Source of the DNA: Gammaproteobacteria bacterium
GTDB lineage: Bacteria; Pseudomonadota; Gammaproteobacteria; Poriferisulfidales; GCA-002705445
DNA: 64,000 nucleotides
NCBI GenBank assembly: GCA_045561235.1
Contig: JBJKYB010000002.1
Location: forward strand, 18,962-82,961
Direction of reading: 5' to 3'
Shown here piece by piece: positions 8,218 through 58,231 of this stretch. The notes under the pieces are model-generated. The model was not told the DNA's origin. It saw nothing but the letters and a program-made list of their open reading frames with translations, and searched no databases. Numbering within the stretch: the first letter of the stretch is position 1; every line of letters starts with the position of its first letter. Both the position numbers and the translations under genes were made by a program.

Positions 8218-9630
8218 ATGAAAGATCATTTAATATTTTTAACTGGAAAGCTAGCGAAGATATCACTTGAGAAAGTTCTATCAGATATTAGCTCCAAAAA
8301 TAAATTCACTTATGAAGTTATGGATATAGGTGTTAATGTTGCTGCTTTGGCAACAATAAATATTATTATTAAAAAAATAAATTTATCAGATGTCACAAAA
8401 GCAACAAAAATTATTATCCCGGGTAGATGCAGAGGTGAAATAAAAGATCTAGAAGCTCATTTTAAGAAAAAATTCATTAGAGGTCCAGAAGAACTAAAAG
8501 ACATTCCAAGCTTTTTAGGTTTACAAGGAAAAGATCTTGATCTAAGTAAATATGATACAAAAATAATTGGAGAAATTACCGAGGCTCCAAATATGTCTAT
8601 TGATGAGATTATTATTCAGGCAAATATTTATAAAGCTGATGGCGCAGATATTATCGATATTGGGTGTTTACCAAGTACAAAGTTTCCACATTTGACCGAA
8701 ACAGTTCAGGAATTAAAAAAACAAAAATTTATGGTTAGTATAGACTCTCTTGATGAAAAAAATTTAATCACAGGAGCTAAAGCTGGTGCAGATTTTTTAC
8801 TAAGCCTTCAAGAAAAATCTATCTGGATAATGGATGAAGTAAATTCTTTACCTGTGATTATTCCAGACTTTCCAAAAGAAGAAAAAAGATTTTACAAGTT
8901 AATTGAAAAATTATTAAAAAATGATAAAGAATTTATTGCTGATTCAATCCTAGAGCCAATAAATTTTGGTTTTACTGATTCCATAGTAAGGTATCATAGA
9001 TTTAGAAAAGAATTTCCGAATGTAGAAATAATGATGGGTATTGGAAATTTAACTGAGCTAACACATGCAGATACAGCTGGAATGAATGCTCTCCTTTTTG
9101 GTATTGCTTCAGAGCTGGAAATTAATTATGCATTATGCACACAGGTAAGTGAACATTGTAATAGGGCCATAATAGAAGGAAATTTTGCTAGAAGAATTAT
9201 GCGTTCCACGAAAACTTATAGTATGCCTCCAAAGGATATTTCTAATAAACTGCTTAGCCTACATGAAAGAAAGCCATTTCCATATTCAACTGAAGAACTT
9301 AAAGAAATGTGGAGTAATGTAAAAGATAAAAATTATAGGATTTATGTAAATCAGGATGGTATACATGTTTTTAATAACAAAAATTTCTATACAGAAAAGG
9401 ATGCTGCAGAGTTTTATCAATATCTTGATATAAAAAATGATGACGGACATGCATATTACCTAGGTATGGAATTAGCAAGAGCTGAAATAGCATTTCAGCT
9501 TGGCAAAAGATACGATCAAGACGAAATACTAAAATGGGGCTGTTCTGTAGAAATATCAGATGATGATATAATGAAATTTAAAACTGCAGGCCACACTATG
9601 AGAAAATTAAAAAAAGAAAAAATGGATTAA
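8218..9630 (+). CDS. dihydropteroate-synthase-like pterin-binding protein, probably tetrahydromethanopterin biosynthesis (MJ0301-type)
   Basis: 470 aa. The central region carries the pterin-binding/DHPS signature (GADIIDIG..PST...) flanked by extra N- and C-terminal domains, as in archaeal/methylotroph H4MPT-linked DHPS-like proteins. It is adjacent to an MfnB-like gene. Confidence 0.55.
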   Translation: MKDHLIFLTGKLAKISLEKVLSDISSKNKFTYEVMDIGVNVAALATINIIIKKINLSDVTKATKIIIPGRCRGEIKDLEAHFKKKFIRGPEELKDIPSFLGLQGKDLDLSKYDTKIIGEITEAPNMSIDEIIIQANIYKADGADIIDIGCLPSTKFPHLTETVQELKKQKFMVSIDSLDEKNLITGAKAGADFLLSLQEKSIWIMDEVNSLPVIIPDFPKEEKRFYKLIEKLLKNDKEFIADSILEPINFGFTDSIVRYHRFRKEFPNVEIMMGIGNLTELTHADTAGMNALLFGIASELEINYALCTQVSEHCNRAIIEGNFARRIMRSTKTYSMPPKDISNKLLSLHERKPFPYSTEELKEMWSNVKDKNYRIYVNQDGIHVFNNKNFYTEKDAAEFYQYLDIKNDDGHAYYLGMELARAEIAFQLGKRYDQDEILKWGCSVEISDDDIMKFKTAGHTMRKLKKEKMD

Positions 9631-9633
9631 ATC

Positions 9634-10203
9634 ATGACCTATGTCAGAGAGACTATAGTTACCACTAAAAATATTGATAACTCTATAAAAGTATCACCAC
9701 TTGGAATTTATATTGAAAATAGTATATTGAAAATAAAACCTTTCAAACCATCAATTTCTCTTGAAAATATCTTAAGAAATAAATCAGGTGTGATAAACTA
9801 TATAGATGATGTAAGAATATTTGCATCATGTATTACAAAAAAAAGTATTAATATTGACTTTGAAAAAGTTAACTTTATTGATTGCTCAAGAATTAATGGT
9901 GCTATATCTCATACAGAATTTGTAGTCGAACATATTGAAGATGATGATAAAAGGCCAACTATAACATGCAAACCTGTTAATGAAGAGGTTCATAAAATAT
10001 TTTATGGGCTAAATAGAGCAAAATCAGCAGTTTTAGAGCTTTGTATTCTCGCATCTAGATTAGGCATAATTGAGGATAAAAAAATTCAAGATGAAATTGA
10101 ATATTTAAAGATCGCAATAGACAAAACAGCTGGTAAAAATGAGCTCGAAGCTTGGACTTGGTTAAATAATTATATAAATACATACAGAGAAAAAATAAAA
10201 TAA
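9634..10203 (+). CDS. hypothetical protein, possibly DUF447-like small protein associated with H4MPT/MFR cofactor gene clusters
   Basis: 189 aa, starting 4 bp after the DHPS-like gene and sharing an ATGA-type junction with the MfnB-like gene. I recognise no strong motif; the assignment is by context and size only. Confidence 0.3.
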   Translation: MTYVRETIVTTKNIDNSIKVSPLGIYIENSILKIKPFKPSISLENILRNKSGVINYIDDVRIFASCITKKSINIDFEKVNFIDCSRINGAISHTEFVVEHIEDDDKRPTITCKPVNEEVHKIFYGLNRAKSAVLELCILASRLGIIEDKKIQDEIEYLKIAIDKTAGKNELEAWTWLNNYINTYREKIK

Positions 10204-10895
10204 TGTTAAAAATACTTGCTAGTATTCAAAATATATCAGAAGCGAAAATTTTAATAAATTCAGATATTGATATTATAGATCTTAAGGATCCATCAAAAGG
10301 CGCTTTGGGTAAATTAAATATTAATGATATTATTAATATAATAAATTTTATTGATAAAAAAAAACTTACAAGTTCTACTATTGGTGATTTACCAAATGAC
10401 AAGAAATTAATTTCTAAAAGTGTAGATGAGTTAAGTATTCTTAATATTGATTTTATTAAAATTGGAGTCTATGAAAGAAGTTATATTAATACAATAGCTG
10501 AAGTTAATTCATGTAAGAAACTTATAGCAGTTTTTTTTGCAGATCTATTCTTGCCTAAAGAAAAAGATTTATTATTCTTAAAAGAATCTGGCTTTTCTGG
10601 TGTAATGATAGATACTTCTAATAAGAAATTAGGAAATCTCTTCGATCATGCGTCTTTCTCTGAAATAAATAGTTTCATATCAAATGCAAAAAAACTTAAT
10701 TTATTGACTGGAATTGCAGGCTCAATTAACGAATCGCATATAAATCAAATTTCAAAAATTAATCCAAACTATATGGGTTTTAGAGGAGCTCTTTGTGAAA
10801 ATAAATTAATTAGAAATTCAACTATATCTGCCAAGAATGTTAAAAATATTATTCATCAAGTTAAAATTTCAAGAGAAATTTCTATGAGCGCTTGA
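10203..10895 (+). CDS. mfnB: MfnB-like (5-formylfuran-3-yl)methyl phosphate synthase family protein (methanofuran/methylofuran biosynthesis)
   Basis: 230 aa. The N-terminus MLKILASIQNISEAKILINSDIDIIDLKDPSKGALGK matches the MJ1099/MfnB family signature (...ADIIDVKNP.EGSLGA). The size also fits. Confidence 0.6.
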   Translation: MLKILASIQNISEAKILINSDIDIIDLKDPSKGALGKLNINDIINIINFIDKKKLTSSTIGDLPNDKKLISKSVDELSILNIDFIKIGVYERSYINTIAEVNSCKKLIAVFFADLFLPKEKDLLFLKESGFSGVMIDTSNKKLGNLFDHASFSEINSFISNAKKLNLLTGIAGSINESHINQISKINPNYMGFRGALCENKLIRNSTISAKNVKNIIHQVKISREISMSA

Positions 10896-49467: not shown

Positions 49468-49543
<76 letters not shown>

Positions 49544-49595
49544 GTGATTGTATACTGTTTTTAACAGGATTGCTCTAAATTTTTGCTAATTTTAT

Positions 49596-49669
<74 letters not shown>

Positions 49670-49780
49670 ATTAAAAAATTAGCTTAAAAATCACACAAAA
49701 CCCTAATAAAACAGCAAATTAAACCCAAATATCTCATAATTTTAATATTTTAACAGACATATTAAAATTATAGTAATTAA

Positions 49781-49865
49781 TGGTGGAGGGGGGAGGATTC
49801 GAACCTCCGAAGGCATAGCCAGCAGATTTACAGTCTGCCCTCGTTGACCGCTTGAGTACCCCTCC
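49781..49865 (-). tRNA. tyrU: tRNA-Tyr (anticodon GUA)
   Basis: 85 nt with long variable arm, anticodon loop CUGUAAA, 3' CCA encoded. The ORF 49742..49942 is an artefact overlapping it. Confidence 0.9.
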
Positions 49866-50445: not shown

Positions 50446-50919
50446 TTAATAATATCTATTTGGTAATGAGGAGTGGTGCATAACGATTTTCAAATCACCA
50501 TTTGACAGTCTTTTATAGACCCAGCTTTTATCTACTTTTACAATATCGCCGTTCTTGTTACTTAAAGTCACCCATCCCATCCATATTGCAATATCATTTT
50601 CTATAAAGATATCTGAAGTTTTGGAGTCAAATTTACTCCACGAGTTAATTCCAAAGCCATTATCCATTGGATATTTTGAATTATTTCCAACGAAATAAGA
50701 TAGAGCTCCCTCCAAACTCGAGCGAAATGTTTGACTACTCCCACTCATGGTCGGTTTAAATAAAATTGGACCGAGTTCAAAAGCATATAATTCCTGTAAA
50801 ATTTTCTTTGCAATTATAGTAGCTTCTTCAATACCTTTTTCATCATAAGTCTTAGAAATTAAAATTAAGCCATCGCCCCAAGCATTGCGTGCTTTATTCA
50901 TATCTTTTTTATTAATCAT
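50446..50919 (-). CDS. hypothetical protein, possibly NTF2-like (SnoaL/DUF4440-type) fold
   Basis: 157 aa soluble protein ending in a ...HHSS-like motif; no catalytic motif recognised. It is co-oriented 96 bp downstream of fprA. Confidence 0.3.
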   Translation of the reverse strand: MINKKDMNKARNAWGDGLILISKTYDEKGIEEATIIAKKILQELYAFELGPILFKPTMSGSSQTFRSSLEGALSYFVGNNSKYPMDNGFGINSWSKFDSKTSDIFIENDIAIWMGWVTLSNKNGDIVKVDKSWVYKRLSNGDLKIVMHHSSLPNRYY

Positions 50920-51015: not shown

Positions 51016-52437
51016 TTAAGTTAGTAGACCAAGCATTTCTTCAGTATATGTAAACTTCTCTCTTGGCTTACCTTTTGGTTTTCCATTTTCAACTTCATGT
51101 TTATCAATAACTTCCCATTCAATAAAATTGATGTATCTTACTTTTTTTGCATTAAGAATTTCGTGTATTTTTTTACTACCAAGCTTTTCTTTTTTATCAT
51201 CTAATTTTTCTAAATCTGTCATAAGTTCTTCAATAGTTTCATTCGCGCAGGCTTTGTTCGTTCCAATAATTCCACTTGGGCCCCTTTTGATCCATCCAGC
51301 TGTATAAAGTTGTGGAACGACAACCTTAGTTTCATGATCTTCGGTAACCCTTCCTTTTTCATTTGGAATAACGCCCCAAGCATCATGAAAAGGTACTCCT
51401 TCTAAAGCTACTCCTCTATAACCAATACTTCTAAATAAAACGCCCGCCTTTAGTTCTTCAAATTCGCCAGTACCTCTTGCCGACTGTTTAAATGGCTCGC
51501 CTGATAGAGCGTTCTTTTCAAAAACAACTGTTTCTAACTTTTTTTTACCTTTTAACTCTACAGGACTTCTCAAAAATTGTATGTGACATTTACGAGGTTT
51601 CACATATGGTTTTGTCCATGGAAAACTTCTTGCCTTATGAGGACTTTTAGGCTCAGCATAACTTGCAAACAATTCGTATATTTTTTTTGCTGATCTACCT
51701 TTTCTATCAGCTAGTTCCTCTTCACTAGATTTATTTAAAATTGCTTCATCAGGATCAACAAAAGTATCACATTCTTGTAACTCACCAAATTCTTTCAGTT
51801 CTTTCGAAGTCATTGCCCCTTGTGCGGGACCTCTTCTTCCAACAATAAATATATTCTTTACTTTACTTGTTTCTAAAACATCAAGCGCATGTTGTGAAAT
51901 GTCAGTATATTTTAATTCATCAACTGTCTTTGAAAGTATTCTGGCAACATCAGCAGCAACATTACCTTGACCAATAATTACAGCATTTTCATGAGATAGA
52001 TCGAATTCCCTATCTCTATATTCTGGATGTCCGTTATACCATGCAACAAATTCCGTAGCTGTATGACTTCCTTTTAAATCCTCACCAGGTATGCCAAGTT
52101 TTCTATCAGTTTCCGCGCCCATAGTTATAATGACAGCATGGTGAGTTTCTTTTAGAGCATCTACAGTTATATCTTTACCAACACTTACATTTCCAAAGTA
52201 ATTAAATTCTTCGGGTTCTGCCATTACTGCAAATTTCTCAATACTTTTTTTAATTAAAGCATGATCAGGTGCAACTCCGGTTCTCACTAGCCCATAGGGC
52301 GCGCATAACTTTTCAAGTAAATTGACTTCTACTTTTAATTCCGAATTAATTAAAGCATCTGCCGCATAAAATCCGCTTGGGCCAGCACCAACAATTGCAA
52401 CTTTCAAGGGATTATCTGAACTTCCTAATTTGCTCAT
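51016..52437 (-). CDS. fprA: FprA/adrenodoxin-reductase-type NADPH:ferredoxin oxidoreductase (glutamate synthase small-subunit-like FAD/NAD(P) fold)
   Basis: 473 aa. The N-terminal FAD dinucleotide motif VAIVGAGPSGFYAA and a second NADP Rossmann motif (VIIGQGNVAADVARIL) give the architecture of Mycobacterium FprA / adrenodoxin reductase. It starts 21 bp after fdxA. Confidence 0.8.
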   Translation of the reverse strand: MSKLGSSDNPLKVAIVGAGPSGFYAADALINSELKVEVNLLEKLCAPYGLVRTGVAPDHALIKKSIEKFAVMAEPEEFNYFGNVSVGKDITVDALKETHHAVIITMGAETDRKLGIPGEDLKGSHTATEFVAWYNGHPEYRDREFDLSHENAVIIGQGNVAADVARILSKTVDELKYTDISQHALDVLETSKVKNIFIVGRRGPAQGAMTSKELKEFGELQECDTFVDPDEAILNKSSEEELADRKGRSAKKIYELFASYAEPKSPHKARSFPWTKPYVKPRKCHIQFLRSPVELKGKKKLETVVFEKNALSGEPFKQSARGTGEFEELKAGVLFRSIGYRGVALEGVPFHDAWGVIPNEKGRVTEDHETKVVVPQLYTAGWIKRGPSGIIGTNKACANETIEELMTDLEKLDDKKEKLGSKKIHEILNAKKVRYINFIEWEVIDKHEVENGKPKGKPREKFTYTEEMLGLLT

Positions 52438-52458: not shown

Positions 52459-52764
52459 TTATAAACCTAATGCTTCTCTTTTGTCTTCTGCACCTTCAAG
52501 AGGTTCAAGAGTTTCAGTAATGTTTGGAGTTTCTTGCGATCTTTCTTCATTTATATCTACCCAATGTTCTTGACCATCAGGAAGATCATCCTCTTCAAAG
52601 ATTGCTTCTACTGGACATTCCGGAACACACGCGCTGCAATCAATACATACATCTGGATTTATATATAACATTTCGTCATCAACGTGAAATGCTTCAACAG
52701 GACAAACCGAAACACAATCGGTAAATCTACATCCTCTACAATTATCTGTCACTACTGTTGTCAT
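52459..52764 (-). CDS. fdxA: 7Fe ferredoxin ([3Fe-4S][4Fe-4S], Azotobacter FdI type)
   Basis: 101 aa; MTTVVTDNCRGCRFTDCVSVCPVEAFH...CIDCSACVPECPVEAIF, near-colinear with A. vinelandii FdI. Confidence 0.93.
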   Translation of the reverse strand: MTTVVTDNCRGCRFTDCVSVCPVEAFHVDDEMLYINPDVCIDCSACVPECPVEAIFEEDDLPDGQEHWVDINEERSQETPNITETLEPLEGAEDKREALGL

Positions 52765-52802: not shown

Positions 52803-53609
52803 CTACGCAGAATAAACTAAAAGTTCTCCGCGATTCATTTCAATAGCATCTCCACTCCACCTATGGAATGAACCATTGATAATTTTATCCTCAATATTAA
52901 TTTTTGTATTTTCTTTTAAATACTTAAAGAAAATTTTTAAATATGTTGGGTTATATAAACAATCATATGAAAAAGTTGGTAATATTTCTAAATTGTCTAT
53001 ACATATAATAGAACCCCTTTTCATTCCTGCTCCAGTTCTGATACCCATTTCACCAAATATTAAAATGGTACCTGATACCATATTAACGCCCGCAAAATCT
53101 CCACAATTTCCACCAACTACCATAGTAGCGCCTGCCATAGCATGACCTAATTCATTTTTGACATTACCCTCAATAATAATTTCTCCCCCGGAAACACCTT
53201 TTGACGCACCTCTATATGCACTTGCAACGCAATGTCCAGCGTTTCCAGAAATATGAATTCTTCCCCCTGACATTTCTGGTGCAATCCAATCACCAGCATT
53301 ACCATTTACGTTTATAGATCCACCAGACATTGCTGAGCCTAAATGGGCACCCACATCTCCTTCGATATGCATCTCCCCTTCAGACATATTTGCTCCCAAA
53401 TATTTTATTCGGTTCATGTCTCCTTCGACTTGCAATAAATCTAATTTACTCTTTGAGACAGAAAAGAAATCAGCTATATTCACTTCTCTATTACCATGAA
53501 AAATTTTAGTTTTTTCAATTTCTTTTGCCTTTAAATTATTAATAACTCCAGGAGTTATACTCTCAGCTTCTAAAGGAACATCTGGTTTTGTGTGTAATTT
53601 TAATTTCAT
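52803..53609 (-). CDS. fhcC: formylmethanofuran dehydrogenase subunit C-like protein (FwdC/FhcC; GltB C-terminal GXGXG beta-helix domain)
   Basis: 268 aa of repeated G.GNAG.....M.GG.I.I.G motifs, typical of FwdC and glutamate synthase alpha-subunit domain 4. Confidence 0.85.
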   Translation of the reverse strand: MKLKLHTKPDVPLEAESITPGVINNLKAKEIEKTKIFHGNREVNIADFFSVSKSKLDLLQVEGDMNRIKYLGANMSEGEMHIEGDVGAHLGSAMSGGSINVNGNAGDWIAPEMSGGRIHISGNAGHCVASAYRGASKGVSGGEIIIEGNVKNELGHAMAGATMVVGGNCGDFAGVNMVSGTILIFGEMGIRTGAGMKRGSIICIDNLEILPTFSYDCLYNPTYLKIFFKYLKENTKINIEDKIINGSFHRWSGDAIEMNRGELLVYSA

Positions 53610-53623
53610 CGTACTAGTTTGAT

Positions 53624-54538
53624 TTAATCTACTAAATCCTTTAAATAAAATTTATATTTACCAAGTTTTCCGCCAAAATTTCCAGCAGTTATTTGAATAA
53701 CTCCTTCTTTGGCTGCAGCATGCATTCCTACTTTCATAGCTTTTGCAACTGCATTCTCATCTGCACCGTCTACGACAATTTCGTAACAAGTATGAACGCT
53801 TTCAGGCACAGCCGAATCTTTAACTACTCCTTTTAAAGTAGGACAATAAATATGGTTTGTCGAGGCAACTAGATCTTTGTATTTTGACCCAACTTTACTA
53901 CCACTTCTAACTACTCCTTTAGGAAATGGCATTATAACATTTTCAACTCTCTTCATAACTTTTACAGCATCGTAACAAGCATCTAGACATTCTTTTACAT
54001 TATCACCAAGAATATAAAAATTTCCACCGCCAACAGATTCTCTTACACCAAAGTTTTCGTGTATTATAAATTCTCCGTCAAAAACTGGAATTCTCCAGTA
54101 TCTTTTATTTTGAATTTTTTTCCCTATTTGATGACCATCACCAAAGTATCTTAATGCTCCACCAACATTTACAGTGTCTTCTGAATCGTAACCACTAAAA
54201 CATGCCGTTGTTGGACATGTCATTACACATTGTCCTATTCTTTCAATTAATCTTTTACCAAGACTCGCTTTATCCATTGTAAAAACTAAAATACTATAAC
54301 CTGGTCTGCCATCAGGGGTTTCCTCGGGAGTAAGCTTCATATCGATACCTGCTTCGCATTTGCAACCTATTACAGAAGTTGCCATTCCAGTCATGGCTCT
54401 TGCAGCACCTTCAGCCCAATAATCATTTTCTGCAGTGATAATTACTTTTGCCGACCACATTGAAAAAGCTTCTGCATATGTATCAACAATTTCTGTATTA
54501 TTAATTTTCATAAATGCTGTTCTTTTTCCTTGTTTCAA
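53624..54538 (-). CDS. fhcD: formylmethanofuran--tetrahydromethanopterin N-formyltransferase (Ftr/FhcD)
   Basis: The N-terminus ...MKINNTEIVDTYAEAFSMWSAKVIITAENDYWAEGAARAMTGMATSVIGCKCEAGID is colinear with archaeal Ftr (MEINGVEIEDTFAEAF...). The likely true start is the Met at about 54511 (295 aa), which avoids a 38-bp overlap with fhcA. Confidence 0.85.
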   Translation of the reverse strand: MKQGKRTAFMKINNTEIVDTYAEAFSMWSAKVIITAENDYWAEGAARAMTGMATSVIGCKCEAGIDMKLTPEETPDGRPGYSILVFTMDKASLGKRLIERIGQCVMTCPTTACFSGYDSEDTVNVGGALRYFGDGHQIGKKIQNKRYWRIPVFDGEFIIHENFGVRESVGGGNFYILGDNVKECLDACYDAVKVMKRVENVIMPFPKGVVRSGSKVGSKYKDLVASTNHIYCPTLKGVVKDSAVPESVHTCYEIVVDGADENAVAKAMKVGMHAAAKEGVIQITAGNFGGKLGKYKFYLKDLVD

Positions 54539-56168
54539 TTACTTTACCTGTGCCATGTAAATATTCATCCTGAACTGCATAATTACTATAGGAAACAGAA
54601 TAAAAATCATCAAAGAAAGGTTTTATAACTTTTTCTATTTCTCTATCAAAATCAGGTGCCACTCGTAAAACTTTTTTGTCAGTATAGTCACTGACAAATT
54701 CATGATCAGCGATCAACAATTGCCCAGCCTTCATAACGTATCTTGGAGCATTAAACATTTCTTCTTTATCCTCAAGCATGTCATATATTGTTATGTCTGC
54801 GTCCGCACCAACACCTAGATGACCTTTATCTTTTAATCCTAAACACTTTGCAGGGCCTGCCCTTGTAATGATACAAATTTCATTTAATGTATATTCCCTT
54901 TTCAACTCTCCCAAAATCGTACTATTCATTGCTTTTTGATTAACACTTTTCATTGCTACTTTTCTAAATTCATAATCCATTAATAATTTAATTACCAATG
55001 GATAATTTGCAAAAGAACCGCCATTTGGATGATCGGTAGACAAAACTATTCTCCAAGGATCTTTTGATAACAAGAATATTTCTAAACCAATAGCCCATTG
55101 AAGTGCATGAGTGTAAATCATACCCTGGTAATCGAAAGGTAAAATTCCACAGCCACTCTCACATTCAGTATCAGCATTCACCCATTTTTCTTTTTTATAA
55201 CCTCTGAGTAAATATGTTAAAGGCGCGTCAGCAGTCATAAACATTGCTTTACCAAACATTACTTGCCCAACATCGCAGGTTATATTTTGGTGGTCGTTTA
55301 CATAATCAGTAATTTCTTTTGAGGCTGATTTTGGTGGCTTGCCAAGTTCACCCGCGTAACTATTGAATTGAATATGAGCAACATGCAGTCTTCTATCCCC
55401 AGCAGTCTTCATACTTTCTAAGGTTGTATCAAAGTTTCCACTATGACCAAGATTATTACAATGAATATGCGGAGGATGAGGTAATCCTAGCTCATGTACA
55501 GCATCAATAAATGCTTCGATCACTTTTCTTGGTGCAATATCTGTCGCCTTACTATCTTCGTCGATATCTTTTACATTCAGATTTTTGTGACCTTTCCAGG
55601 GTTCATCTCCTCCTGGATTTACTAATTTCACAGTGTACGCTTTTGTTGCATTTAACCACCATGCAACTGCCTCTTTGAACTCAGCAAAACGCCCCTCTGC
55701 AATTAAACTTTGTAAAAAAAGATTATTTCCAAGTAAAACATAAAAACCGTTGTCAATGATTGGCGTGTCGTACATTTCTTCCAGCGCATGCCTTGCAGTC
55801 AATGGCGGGACAGCTGCTTCCATTGCAGTTGTGTATCCTAAAGTTGCATATCTATATCCAGTTGCGAAAGTTGAAGGAACAATTCCTCCAGTACCAGATT
55901 GTGTGTATGGGGTTTTAAAGTGCGGATCTAATCTATGATCCTCGGGCATTAATTTTCTTGCTAGATTAACTTTTGGTCCAGTAATATGACAATGAATATC
56001 TACACCGCCAGGCATAACTGCCATTCCTTTTGCATCGATAACCTTTGCCGCTTTGGAAACCTTTGAGACAATTTTTCCATCCTTTACGAGGATGTCACAA
56101 ACTTTTCCTTCGATTTCATTTGTAGGATCAAAAACTATGCCGTTTATGATACGAAATTCATTACTCAT
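54501..56168 (-). CDS. fhcA: formylmethanofuran dehydrogenase subunit A-like metal-dependent amidohydrolase (FwdA/FhcA)
   Basis: 555 aa amidohydrolase-superfamily protein (GGVDIHCH metal-binding motif near the N-terminus) with FwdA length and operon context. Confidence 0.85.
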   Translation of the reverse strand: MSNEFRIINGIVFDPTNEIEGKVCDILVKDGKIVSKVSKAAKVIDAKGMAVMPGGVDIHCHITGPKVNLARKLMPEDHRLDPHFKTPYTQSGTGGIVPSTFATGYRYATLGYTTAMEAAVPPLTARHALEEMYDTPIIDNGFYVLLGNNLFLQSLIAEGRFAEFKEAVAWWLNATKAYTVKLVNPGGDEPWKGHKNLNVKDIDEDSKATDIAPRKVIEAFIDAVHELGLPHPPHIHCNNLGHSGNFDTTLESMKTAGDRRLHVAHIQFNSYAGELGKPPKSASKEITDYVNDHQNITCDVGQVMFGKAMFMTADAPLTYLLRGYKKEKWVNADTECESGCGILPFDYQGMIYTHALQWAIGLEIFLLSKDPWRIVLSTDHPNGGSFANYPLVIKLLMDYEFRKVAMKSVNQKAMNSTILGELKREYTLNEICIITRAGPAKCLGLKDKGHLGVGADADITIYDMLEDKEEMFNAPRYVMKAGQLLIADHEFVSDYTDKKVLRVAPDFDREIEKVIKPFFDDFYSVSYSNYAVQDEYLHGTGKVIETRKKNSIYEN

Positions 56169-56220: not shown

Positions 56221-57591
56221 TTACATATATTTTTTAGTTGCATAAGGTCTATTTGCTTTTTTAGACAACTCATTAACTTTTTTTCTAAGTTTTGTTAGCA
56301 CCTCTAGATCACTAGGAAATGGTGAATCAAATGCAGGTCTTAAACTAATTGGAACATCATCCATTCTATAAACTGTTCCACCGGTGTTAATTCCATAAGT
56401 ACTGGTTTGAATTGAAATATGCGCAGCTTCACTTGTCGGTGTGTTTTTTGTATCTATTGATATTAATTTACATTTGTCACTTGTAATATGATCAATTGCA
56501 GGCTTTGGAAAATTCGCAACTGGATCACTTGCAATTATTAAAGCTGCATCAGCTTCTTTTCTTGTTAAAGTATCAACAGTTGTAAATTCACCAGGATTAA
56601 ACCTTGGGTGCCCTCTGCTAAAATTAACTCCAAACGGATACCCAGTTTGCCAAGAAACAACGTTATCGGCACCTGTTACGTTACCATGTCCTCTTGCAGG
56701 TTTTGCTACAAAATGCGTAAATTCATTTAGATCTGTTGCTAAGGCCATTAATGCTCCAGAGTTAAAGTGTCTTCCTCTAGTCATTGTTAATCCCATTCCA
56801 AAAAATATAACTCCATAAGTACAGTTTTTCATTTTATTAAAAAGATCTTCAGCAACTTCTTTTTCGATACCACAAATTTCTTTACAATTATCTGGAATAG
56901 GAACACCTTTACATGCAGCCCTGAGTATCCATAAAAACTCAAAATCTTTTCCAGGTTTTACTTGTAAAAATATATCAGCTACTCCTGCTGTTTTTGTATG
57001 TCTCACATCACAAATTACAACTGTACGATCATCTTTTCCATTTGGAGTAAACATACCTTCTGGTGTAACAGCATATCTTGCGAAATGTCTTGGGTGCGCT
57101 TCAGCTGGATTACCACCCCAATACATTACAAAGTCAGCTCTATTTTTTACTTCTCCTAAAGTCATGCTGGGTTCACCAACACCTTGGAAAGCCATGCCGG
57201 ATGGACCGTGACATACAGAAGTTGTTGTATCAATAGTTCCACCACAATCGTCCATGATTGGAGCACATTGTCTTTGAGCTTCACATATTGTGTCACTCAT
57301 ACCATATAATATTGGAAACTTTGCATCCATTAACACTTTAGCCGCTTCATCAATTGCATCATCTAAAGGAACTTCTTTTCCATCTATTCTTGCTATTGGC
57401 TTATCTTCTATAACATGATTTAAAAACCAAGCCTTTCCAAGTATGCAAGCATCTTTAGCTTTTGTGATAACTTTTTTGTCCATATCAACAGTCAAAGTAA
57501 TATCATCACAACAGCATCCACAAAAAGTACAAGTTGCGTTCTCTACAATTTTCTCATTTACAATTTTATTATCTTTACTTACTGCACTCAT
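56221..57591 (-). CDS. fhcB: formylmethanofuran dehydrogenase subunit B-like molybdopterin-oxidoreductase-fold protein (FwdB/FhcB)
   Basis: 456 aa. An N-terminal Cys cluster (CTFCGCCCDD...C) resembles the MopB [4Fe-4S] motif. The internal TTTSVCHGPSG resembles the Cys/SeCys active-site motif (VUHGPS of FDH-H). Confidence 0.8.
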   Translation of the reverse strand: MSAVSKDNKIVNEKIVENATCTFCGCCCDDITLTVDMDKKVITKAKDACILGKAWFLNHVIEDKPIARIDGKEVPLDDAIDEAAKVLMDAKFPILYGMSDTICEAQRQCAPIMDDCGGTIDTTTSVCHGPSGMAFQGVGEPSMTLGEVKNRADFVMYWGGNPAEAHPRHFARYAVTPEGMFTPNGKDDRTVVICDVRHTKTAGVADIFLQVKPGKDFEFLWILRAACKGVPIPDNCKEICGIEKEVAEDLFNKMKNCTYGVIFFGMGLTMTRGRHFNSGALMALATDLNEFTHFVAKPARGHGNVTGADNVVSWQTGYPFGVNFSRGHPRFNPGEFTTVDTLTRKEADAALIIASDPVANFPKPAIDHITSDKCKLISIDTKNTPTSEAAHISIQTSTYGINTGGTVYRMDDVPISLRPAFDSPFPSDLEVLTKLRKKVNELSKKANRPYATKKYM

Positions 57592-57620: not shown

Positions 57621-58013
57621 TTAAGCAACTTCAGTTTTAGGCGGTAAAGCAGTTTTCTTTTTTACGCCTTTTTTGACAAACTCTATATCTATTGTCATTC
57701 CTTTTGAGGCCGGCATGCCCGATGCACATGTTTCACCATCAAACAAACAACTTGATGGCGGGCCATATGGAATGAATGCATAACCTACAGGAATTTTTCC
57801 TTCTCTTAGAACTTTTAGTTGAACTTCAGTTTCACCGATGTGGTTACTAATTTTGACTATGTCAGCTGTTTCTAGTCCTAGCTCAGCTGCATCTTCGAAA
57901 CTAATTTCAAGCGTAGTTGTGACTCTAATGTACTCTTCCTTAAGCTTACCCTTATTCAGCCCTACTCCTTGTTTGGCGGAGCGGCCTGGTATAAGTATTA
58001 GTTGTCCTTTCAT
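57621..58013 (-). CDS. formylmethanofuran dehydrogenase subunit D-like protein (molybdopterin dinucleotide-binding / MopB C-terminal beta-barrel domain)
   Basis: 130 aa; colinear with archaeal FwdD (G.......G....V.I......G...V...V.......F.P.GP........D..T...GMP.SKG......E). It is the first gene of the operon, 29 bp upstream of fhcB. Confidence 0.65.
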   Translation of the reverse strand: MKGQLILIPGRSAKQGVGLNKGKLKEEYIRVTTTLEISFEDAAELGLETADIVKISNHIGETEVQLKVLREGKIPVGYAFIPYGPPSSCLFDGETCASGMPASKGMTIDIEFVKKGVKKKTALPPKTEVA

Positions 58014-58155: not shown

Positions 58156-58231
58156 TGGAGCCGCCTGTCAGAATCGAACTGACTACCTGCTGATTACAAA
58201 ACAACTGCTCTACCAAATGAGCTAAGGCGGC
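58156..58231 (-). tRNA. tRNA-Thr (anticodon UGU)
   Basis: 76 nt hand-folded cloverleaf with perfect 7-bp acceptor stem (GCCGCCT/AGGCGGC), D-arm GCTC-ATTTGGTA-GAGC, anticodon loop UUUGUAA, T-arm GTCAG-TTCGATT-CTGAC, CCA encoded. Confidence 0.85.

Follow-up and report, generated by a model that had tools for sequence, protein, structure and literature searches.

According to the accepted picture, which comes from Methylorubrum extorquens, bacteria turned the archaeal CO2-fixing formylmethanofuran dehydrogenase (Fwd) into a cofactor-less hydrolase (Fhc) that releases formate. A 64,000-nucleotide (nt) stretch of contig JBJKYB010000002.1 (assembly GCA_045561235.1; the whole stretch is hereafter called the window), from an abundant uncultured marine gammaproteobacterium, carries a gene, fwdB, that raises the question of whether some bacteria kept a redox-active form of this enzyme. 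The identical protein is deposited at NCBI as MFL2548828.1 (formylmethanofuran dehydrogenase subunit B [Gammaproteobacteria bacterium]), and its cluster at 90% identity has 688 members, Tara Oceans sequences included.

We consider it likely, from the sequences, that the fwdB product is the catalytic B subunit of a bacterial formylmethanofuran dehydrogenase, and that fwdB and six adjoining genes form one system, which would convert formyl-tetrahydromethanopterin (formyl-H4MPT) to CO2. The host would then probably oxidise one-carbon (C1) units directly to CO2, unlike the textbook bacterial methylotrophs, which release formate.

Residues that tell FwdB from FhcB

fwdB and its partner genes all lie on the minus strand and are co-directional. 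The gene and the codons of its candidate functional residues are as follows.

56221..57591, minus strand: fwdB, 456 amino acids (aa), ATG start, predicted catalytic-type MopB subunit
57508..57531, minus strand: codons of Cys21, Cys24 and Cys28 (CTFCGCCC), candidate [4Fe-4S] ligands, aligned to CPFCGTLC of Methanothermobacter wolfeii FwdB
57445-57447, minus strand: codon of Cys49, fourth member of the candidate [4Fe-4S] ligand set
57208..57213, minus strand: codons of Cys127 and His128 (TGT CAC), candidate W/Mo ligand and catalytic histidine, aligned to Cys118-His119 of 5t5i_B
56692..56694, minus strand: codon of Arg300, candidate catalytic arginine, aligned to Arg288 of 5t5i_B

A reading of 56221..57591 on the plus strand was rejected, its frames being full of stops.

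The protein has the N-terminal sequence ENATC21TFC24GC26C27C28DD, a further cysteine in DAC49ILG, and TTTSVC127H128GPS at residues 122-131, with a glycine next. A phmmer search against all chains of the Protein Data Bank (PDB) matched residues 15-442 to M. wolfeii FwdB (5t5i_B; expectation value (E) 4.2e-111), with similar scores for four other archaeal FwdB structures, whereas FhcB of M. extorquens (6s6y_B) gave a weaker match (E 6.5e-11) over the C-terminal part only. In the alignment with 5t5i_B, CTFCGCCCDD falls on CPFCGTLCDD, SVCHGPS on SVCHGPS (Cys118-His119 in chain numbering) and PARGHGN on PMRGHYN (Arg288). Identity is 44% to M. wolfeii FwdB and 40-44% to archaeal FwdB, against 22-26% to FhcB of three classical proteobacterial fhc clusters (L081-L083) from Azospirillum (alpha-), Azoarcus (beta-) and Ca. 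Thiodictyon (a gammaproteobacterium). By these alignments, the likeness of the product to FwdB is homology and not chance. The original prediction for this locus had pointed to CTFCGCCCDD with a downstream cysteine, to TTTSVCHGPSG and to a likeness to archaeal FwdB. Both motifs are present exactly, the downstream residue being Cys49, although the cysteine of the second motif is residue 127 and not 126; the likeness is borne out over residues 15-442, and Cys127 aligns, as had been anticipated, with the metal-ligating cysteine of FwdB.

To follow these residues through the family, a full-library HMMER search was made, which gave 2423 clusters (50% identity) at E ≤ 1e-3 and 592 at E ≤ 1e-30, and retention was counted from alignment columns on about 127 full-length representatives (P0121-P0270). 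Cys21, Cys24, Cys28 and Cys49 are invariant in three separate family alignments, and CxxCxxxCDD together with SVCHGP[ST] is kept in all 120 homologues listed (68-98% identity). Across FwdB and FhcB, the four N-terminal cysteines are kept in 119 of the 127 representatives, and FhcB of Azospirillum, Azoarcus and Thiodictyon has all four. Because non-catalytic FhcB proteins keep these cysteines, the N-terminal motif is no evidence for redox activity, and on this point the argument of the original prediction fails.

The residues Cys127, His128 and Arg300 behave differently. This trio is kept in 20 of the 127 representatives, among them the clade of the window's FwdB and M. wolfeii, whereas the same three FhcB proteins have Ala-Leu-(Ala/Ser/Gly) at these positions; classical FhcB and the tandem second copies described below have A/S/Q/H, then L/M/A/S, then G/A/S. 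In thirteen alignment columns conservation is specific to the class with the trio, and the window's protein shares 12 of these; the FhcB-type insertion (alignment columns 201-216) is missing from it, and the ASDP segment is present. Judged from these columns, the trio is the informative, discriminating feature and the N-terminal motif is not. The original prediction had named the sharing of its motifs by classical FhcB as a point that would tell against it: such sharing was found for the N-terminal cysteines, but not for Cys-His or for Arg. Its conclusion, a cofactor-binding and redox-active subunit of FwdB type, draws support at the level of sequence and model from the trio, from the neighbouring fwdD gene, from the fit of the structure model and from the linkage to fdx and fpr, presented below.

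In M. extorquens FhcB, Ser62 stands in place of Cys118, and neither His119 nor Arg288 is conserved (Hemmann et al. 2019, PMC6926001). The same study describes an FhcB without the N-terminal Fe-S domain, in which three loops clash with the pterin site, and a complex from which FwdD is absent, this absence being one reason why FhcB cannot hold the pterin; the statement in the original prediction that this subunit lacks a redox cofactor is thus correct. Within its family this truncated protein, from which the one FhcB structure comes, is atypical. Given the retention of the cysteines in 119 of the 127 representatives, many 'scaffold' FhcB proteins may still bind an Fe-S cluster. Seven distant representatives of about 570-606 aa (P0121, P0123, P0126, P0127, P0136, P0145 and P0208) have a FwdD-like domain fused N-terminally to FwdB, and most of them keep Cys-His-Arg.

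An AlphaFold2 model of FwdB built on a 110-sequence alignment reached a mean predicted local distance difference test score (pLDDT) of 95.8 and a predicted template-modelling (TM) score of 0.92; a model from 10 close homologues alone (pLDDT 59) was discarded. Compared with the PDB by Foldseek, with TM scores normalised to the target, the model fits catalytic FwdB chains (8rja_B, 5t5i, 5t61, 5t5m and 7bkb_H) at TM 0.94-0.96 and a root-mean-square deviation (rmsd) of 1.5-1.8 Å, against TM 0.81-0.83 and an rmsd of 3.7-4.0 Å for FhcB (6s6y). The modelled fold is that of FwdB and lacks the FhcB insertions that clash with the pterin. Stand-alone formate dehydrogenase of the FdhF/FDH-H type was considered as a candidate and rejected: matches were limited to E ~1e-8 to 1e-9 over about 100 active-site residues (1aa6 and 1kqf), target-normalised TM was 0.35-0.5, and domain IV of the window's enzyme is encoded by a separate gene.

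A seven-gene module and its paralogue

fwdB is the second of seven co-directional genes, in the order fwdD-fwdB-fwdA-ftr-fwdC-fdx-fpr. Its six partners are:

57621..58013, minus strand: fwdD, the first gene, 130-aa molybdopterin-dinucleotide-binding 'domain IV' subunit (Pfam PF01568, E 2.8e-10)
54501..56168, minus strand: fwdA, 555-aa amidohydrolase subunit with the formyl-methanofuran hydrolysis/condensation site (Pfam Amidohydro_3, E 8.5e-45)
53624..54538, minus strand: ftr (fhcD-like), formylmethanofuran:H4MPT formyltransferase (Pfam FTR and FTR_C, E ~1e-60)
52803..53609, minus strand: fwdC, 268-aa GXGXG beta-helix subunit (Pfam PF01493)
52459..52764, minus strand: fdx, 101-aa 7Fe ([3Fe-4S][4Fe-4S]) ferredoxin of the Azotobacter FdI type (Pfam Fer4 and DUF3470)
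51016..52437, minus strand: fpr, 473-aa NADPH:ferredoxin oxidoreductase of the FprA/adrenodoxin-reductase type, the last conserved gene of the module

The gaps between successive genes are 29, 52, -38, 14, 38 and 21 nt. The negative value stems from the listed TTG start of ftr, with which the gene runs 38 nt into fwdA; more likely ftr begins at the ATG at 54511, and the gap is then about -11. No terminator-like site was found by scanning the coding strand inside the operon, and in the promoter/terminator scan of the operon counts were no higher than in shuffled sequences. Upstream of fwdD no riboswitch for molybdenum or tungsten cofactor (Moco/Wco) was detected, a tRNA-Thr gene being the only element there.

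Matches among PDB chains bear out the identity of each partner. FwdD matches FwdD chains (2ki8_A, E 6e-14; 8rja_D, E 9e-12; 5t5i_D, E 4e-7), and FwdA is closer to archaeal FwdA (E 1e-137 to 1e-139) than to FhcA (E 5e-100), with the metal-site residues H59, H61, K181, H231/234/236, H262/265 and D379 invariant. Ftr matches 6s6y_D (E 3e-87) and 1ftr_A (E 2e-84), and FwdC matches FwdC and FhcC chains alike (E 1e-38 to 1e-45). Fdx aligns to Azotobacter ferredoxin I chains (E 2e-29) with the complete cysteine pattern, and Fpr is matched over its full length by M. tuberculosis FprA (1lqt_A, E 1e-98) and adrenodoxin reductase (1cjc_A, E 6e-89).

The module thus shares with the archaeal W/Mo FwdABCD(FG) enzymes (M. 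wolfeii 5T5I; Ca. Ethanoperedens 8RJA; M. hungatei 7BKB) the four-cysteine motif, Cys-His and Arg in FwdB, a separate FwdD domain IV, an amidohydrolase FwdA with conserved metal ligands and a beta-helix FwdC. It differs from them in its host, a marine gammaproteobacterium of aerobic type, in having a 7Fe ferredoxin and an FprA-type reductase instead of FwdF/G, Hdr or an F420-reductase module, and in the position of ftr between fwdA and fwdC, as in bacterial fhc clusters. With FhcABCD (M. extorquens 6S6Y, classical fhcBADC) it has in common the order B-A-ftr(D)-C, also seen in L081-L083, which is a likeness of layout and not of membership, as well as the role in the H4MPT/methanofuran pathway of formaldehyde oxidation and an Ftr equally similar to FhcD; it keeps Cys/His/Arg and has FwdD, fdx and fpr, whereas FhcB goes without the trio and without FwdD. 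Every sequence-defined catalytic feature of FwdB is present. By sequence and by modelled fold, the subunit has all that characterises FwdB and none of what defines FhcB, namely loss of the trio and lack of FwdD.

When each species was represented by one genome, at least 569 species proved to have a relative, and the best 80 loci, all from metagenome-assembled or single-amplified genomes of uncultured Gammaproteobacteria (GC 29-67%), were compared. Cys-His-Arg is present in the Fwd-type copy of all 80. The seven-gene order is kept in nearly all loci that extend far enough. By gene, 79 loci have fwdD and 79 have fwdA, 72 have ftr, 68 fwdC, 62 fdx and 60 fpr, and where one is missing the contig almost always ends. 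This order holds over the whole GC range, while other neighbours change, flanking genes being in common only among the nine closest relatives. In relatives the operon adjoins fae, mch and a gene for an Mpt_N (PF09176) dehydrogenase, the formaldehyde-oxidation layout of methylotrophs. Several loci (L013, L027, L065, L076, L011/L025/L028 and others) carry the labels Planctomycetota, Gemmatimonadota, Chloroflexi, Mycobacterium or Enterobacteriaceae around a whole gene cluster about 70% identical; the probable cause is mis-binning or mislabelling of the contigs and not a real occurrence of the cluster across phyla.

In about 32 of some 50 loci that extend far enough, a second gene of the FwdB family lies directly after fpr. 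This second copy keeps the four N-terminal cysteines and has lost Cys, His and Arg altogether, and it is 33-38% identical to Thiodictyon FhcB as against 23-27% to the FwdB of the window. It belongs to a complete fhcB-A-D-C cluster with its own formyltransferase. In L084 (9611-21362), fwdD-fwdB-fwdA-ftr-fwdC-fdx-fpr is followed by fhcB-fhcA-fhcD-fhcC, with genes for Mpt_N, MCH and Fae domains and for H4MPT biosynthesis divergently upstream; further tandem loci are L012, L017-L024, L030-L037, L039, L042, L043, L046, L050, L054, L068-L072, L075 and L077-L079. Since a complete classical fhcBADC follows the Fwd module in the same genomes, Fwd and Fhc are distinct paralogous systems. The lineage of the window is streamlined (about 30% GC, contigs of about 1.1 Mb) and has only the Fwd-type module at the fwd locus; no second FwdB-family copy was found within the 64 kb.

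These comparisons bear on the view that the product is a classical non-redox FhcB scaffold whose 'catalytic' residues are inherited and functionless. Among bacterial relatives, biochemical characterisation exists for Fhc alone (PMC6926001), the B-A-ftr-C order is identical to that of fhc clusters, and annotation names both types alike. Against this stand the invariance of Cys/His/Arg in the 80 loci and the 120 homologues listed, the absence of all three from true FhcB paralogues of the same genomes, the retention of FwdD in 79 of 80 loci, the much higher identity to archaeal FwdB and the much better fit of the model to FwdB, which together make a scaffold very improbable. As for the name, 'formylmethanofuran dehydrogenase subunit B' covers in public annotation both catalytic-type proteins and degenerate FhcB, and it carries no information on redox competence.

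The surroundings of the operon differ between lineages. Directly downstream of fpr is a 157-aa open reading frame (ORF; 50446-50919, minus strand) with no Pfam match, found by tblastn in only L001, L005 and L007, which may or may not be a member of the operon. The block formed by fwdD to fpr, this ORF and psiE is flanked by tRNA-Thr(tgt) on one side and by tRNA-Tyr(gta)-tRNA-Gly(tcc)-tRNA-Thr(ggt)-tuf on the other (window 49468-49865 and 58156-58231), and we take the arrangement into which it falls to be that of thrU-tyrU-glyT-thrT-tufB of E. coli. Because the module adjoins H4MPT pathway genes in relatives with larger genomes, we conclude that it was relocated in the streamlined lineage.

Proposed electron route and direction

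If the seven genes act as one system, Ftr, which may be physically part of the complex, would pass the formyl group from H4MPT to methanofuran, and FwdA would hydrolyse formyl-methanofuran at its binuclear metal site. The formate would be handed internally to FwdB/FwdD and oxidised to CO2 at a putative tungsto- or molybdo-bis-pterin centre with Cys127 as ligand and with the participation of His128 and Arg300. From the predicted [4Fe-4S] cluster of FwdB, electrons would run to the 7Fe ferredoxin, then to the FprA-type flavoprotein and finally to NADP+.

In the known FprA/7Fe ferredoxin systems, NADPH is the source of the electrons, and P450s or other acceptors receive them. The pair of the window resembles these closely in sequence, Fpr to M. 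tuberculosis FprA over its full length and Fdx to Azotobacter vinelandii ferredoxin I in its complete cysteine pattern, and differs from them in being operon-linked to a low-potential C1 dehydrogenase, so that flow would most plausibly be the reverse of that in the known systems.

It is also conceivable, though unlikely, that FwdB and FwdD are catalytic while ferredoxin and reductase are not the main electron sink; the pair would then help to activate the metal centre reductively or to protect it, or would take part in some unrelated process that depends on ferredoxin, with bulk electrons going to another ferredoxin or to the respiratory chain. The link of the pair to FwdB is one of gene linkage, and in the Fwd enzymes characterised so far this part is played by polyferredoxin, Hdr or F420 modules (PMC11656701). 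Among the 56 loci that reach at least 2 kb past fwdC, however, tblastn placed fdx and fpr directly after fwdC in all but two, over the whole GC range and down to about 55% protein identity, while neighbours change; the two exceptions, L049 with neither gene after fwdC despite enough sequence and L066 with both upstream instead, speak for the accessory role. In the window the pair follows on the same strand after gaps of 38 and 21 nt with no terminator-like site on that strand, and it never occurs in the classical fhc clusters examined, which are also without fwdD.

Direction is the other point at issue. FprA enzymes such as that of M. tuberculosis normally move electrons from NADPH to ferredoxin. 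This general behaviour, and catalytic features that are all those of the CO2-reducing archaeal enzyme, would fit a system run as in methanogens, in which NADPH-reduced ferredoxin drives CO2 to formyl-methanofuran and formyl-H4MPT for assimilation. The NADP+/NADPH couple has a potential of about -320 mV. That of CO2/formyl-methanofuran, with an E0' of about -530 mV (quoted in PMC11656701), is more negative than that of NADPH by roughly 200 mV, the operon encodes no module for bifurcation or energy coupling, and the relatives' operon stands beside fae, mch and the Mpt_N (PF09176) gene in the formaldehyde-oxidation layout; we regard the reductive direction as very unlikely. The oxidative direction of the preferred reading, catalysis by FwdBD with transfer to NADP+, would be downhill given these potentials and also fits the methylotroph-type neighbourhood.

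Candidate cofactor genes lie elsewhere in the window:

8218..10895, plus strand: genes for a dihydropteroate-synthase-like protein, a DUF447 protein and MfnB (4-HFC-P synthase) (TIGR00284, PRK02227; DUF6513, DUF447 and 4HFCP_synth, E 1e-54)

This cluster and the fwd operon lie 45 kb apart. Its predicted MfnB gene, a gene of methanofuran biosynthesis, indicates that methanofuran is made by the organism; from their family context, we read the dihydropteroate-synthase-like and DUF447 genes as H4MPT-related. The window holds no rRNA gene.

Several points weigh against the proposed system. No gene for a polyferredoxin of FwdF/G type was found in the operon or its flanks, so that the electron exit route would be unlike that of every characterised Fwd. 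The claim comes from sequence, model and gene context; AlphaFold has seen FwdB structures, and its model says nothing on cofactor occupancy. Genes for Moco biosynthesis or W/Mo transport were found neither in the left 20 kb of the window nor among the neighbour families that are conserved in the set of 80 loci; genes of this kind usually lie unlinked. A search with homologues from relatives located neither fae, mtdB and mch nor any H4MPT-biosynthesis homologue in the 64-kb window.

A possible branch point in bacterial C1 oxidation

A 2016 article (PMC5020050) gives fwdD as absent from Proteobacteria, Wells et al. 2023 counted 149 bacterial 'FwdB' hits and attributed them to transfer from Archaea, and a 2024 review of formylmethanofuran dehydrogenase mentions only 'distant bacterial' Fhc (PMC11656701). 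In the literature searched, the coverage of which left out most subscription journals, we found no description of a proteobacterial FwdD, of an FprA-coupled Fwd or of the operon of the window.

The evidence is about evenly balanced on a broader reading that joins these observations. Under it, the module would be a widespread, O2-compatible FwdABCD-Ftr complex that takes formyl-H4MPT directly to CO2, with no formate set free, and whose electrons reach NADP+ through a 7Fe ferredoxin and an FprA-type reductase of its own. Between the CO2-fixing Fwd of Archaea and the degenerate Fhc it would stand as an extant intermediate, in which Ftr had been recruited and the dehydrogenase not yet lost, and in streamlined ocean plankton it would have replaced the route through Fhc and formate dehydrogenase.

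A large gammaproteobacterial clade with an intact catalytic-type module (at least 569 species with a relative) contradicts the accepted picture of the bacterial enzyme. The module of this clade carries its own predicted NADP-linked electron chain and often stands beside classical Fhc. This pairing, which many Gammaproteobacteria with larger genomes carry, suggests a branch point between the release of formate through Fhc and complete oxidation with a gain of NADPH through Fwd. The shared annotation name hides this functional split, which three residues and the presence of fwdD suffice to resolve. If active, the enzyme may be an O2-tolerant, NADP-coupled CO2/formyl-methanofuran catalyst of biotechnological interest, it would offer a natural test case for the proposed evolutionary path from Fwd to Fhc, and it would change how the last step of marine C1 oxidation, from methanol, formaldehyde and methylated compounds, is modelled.

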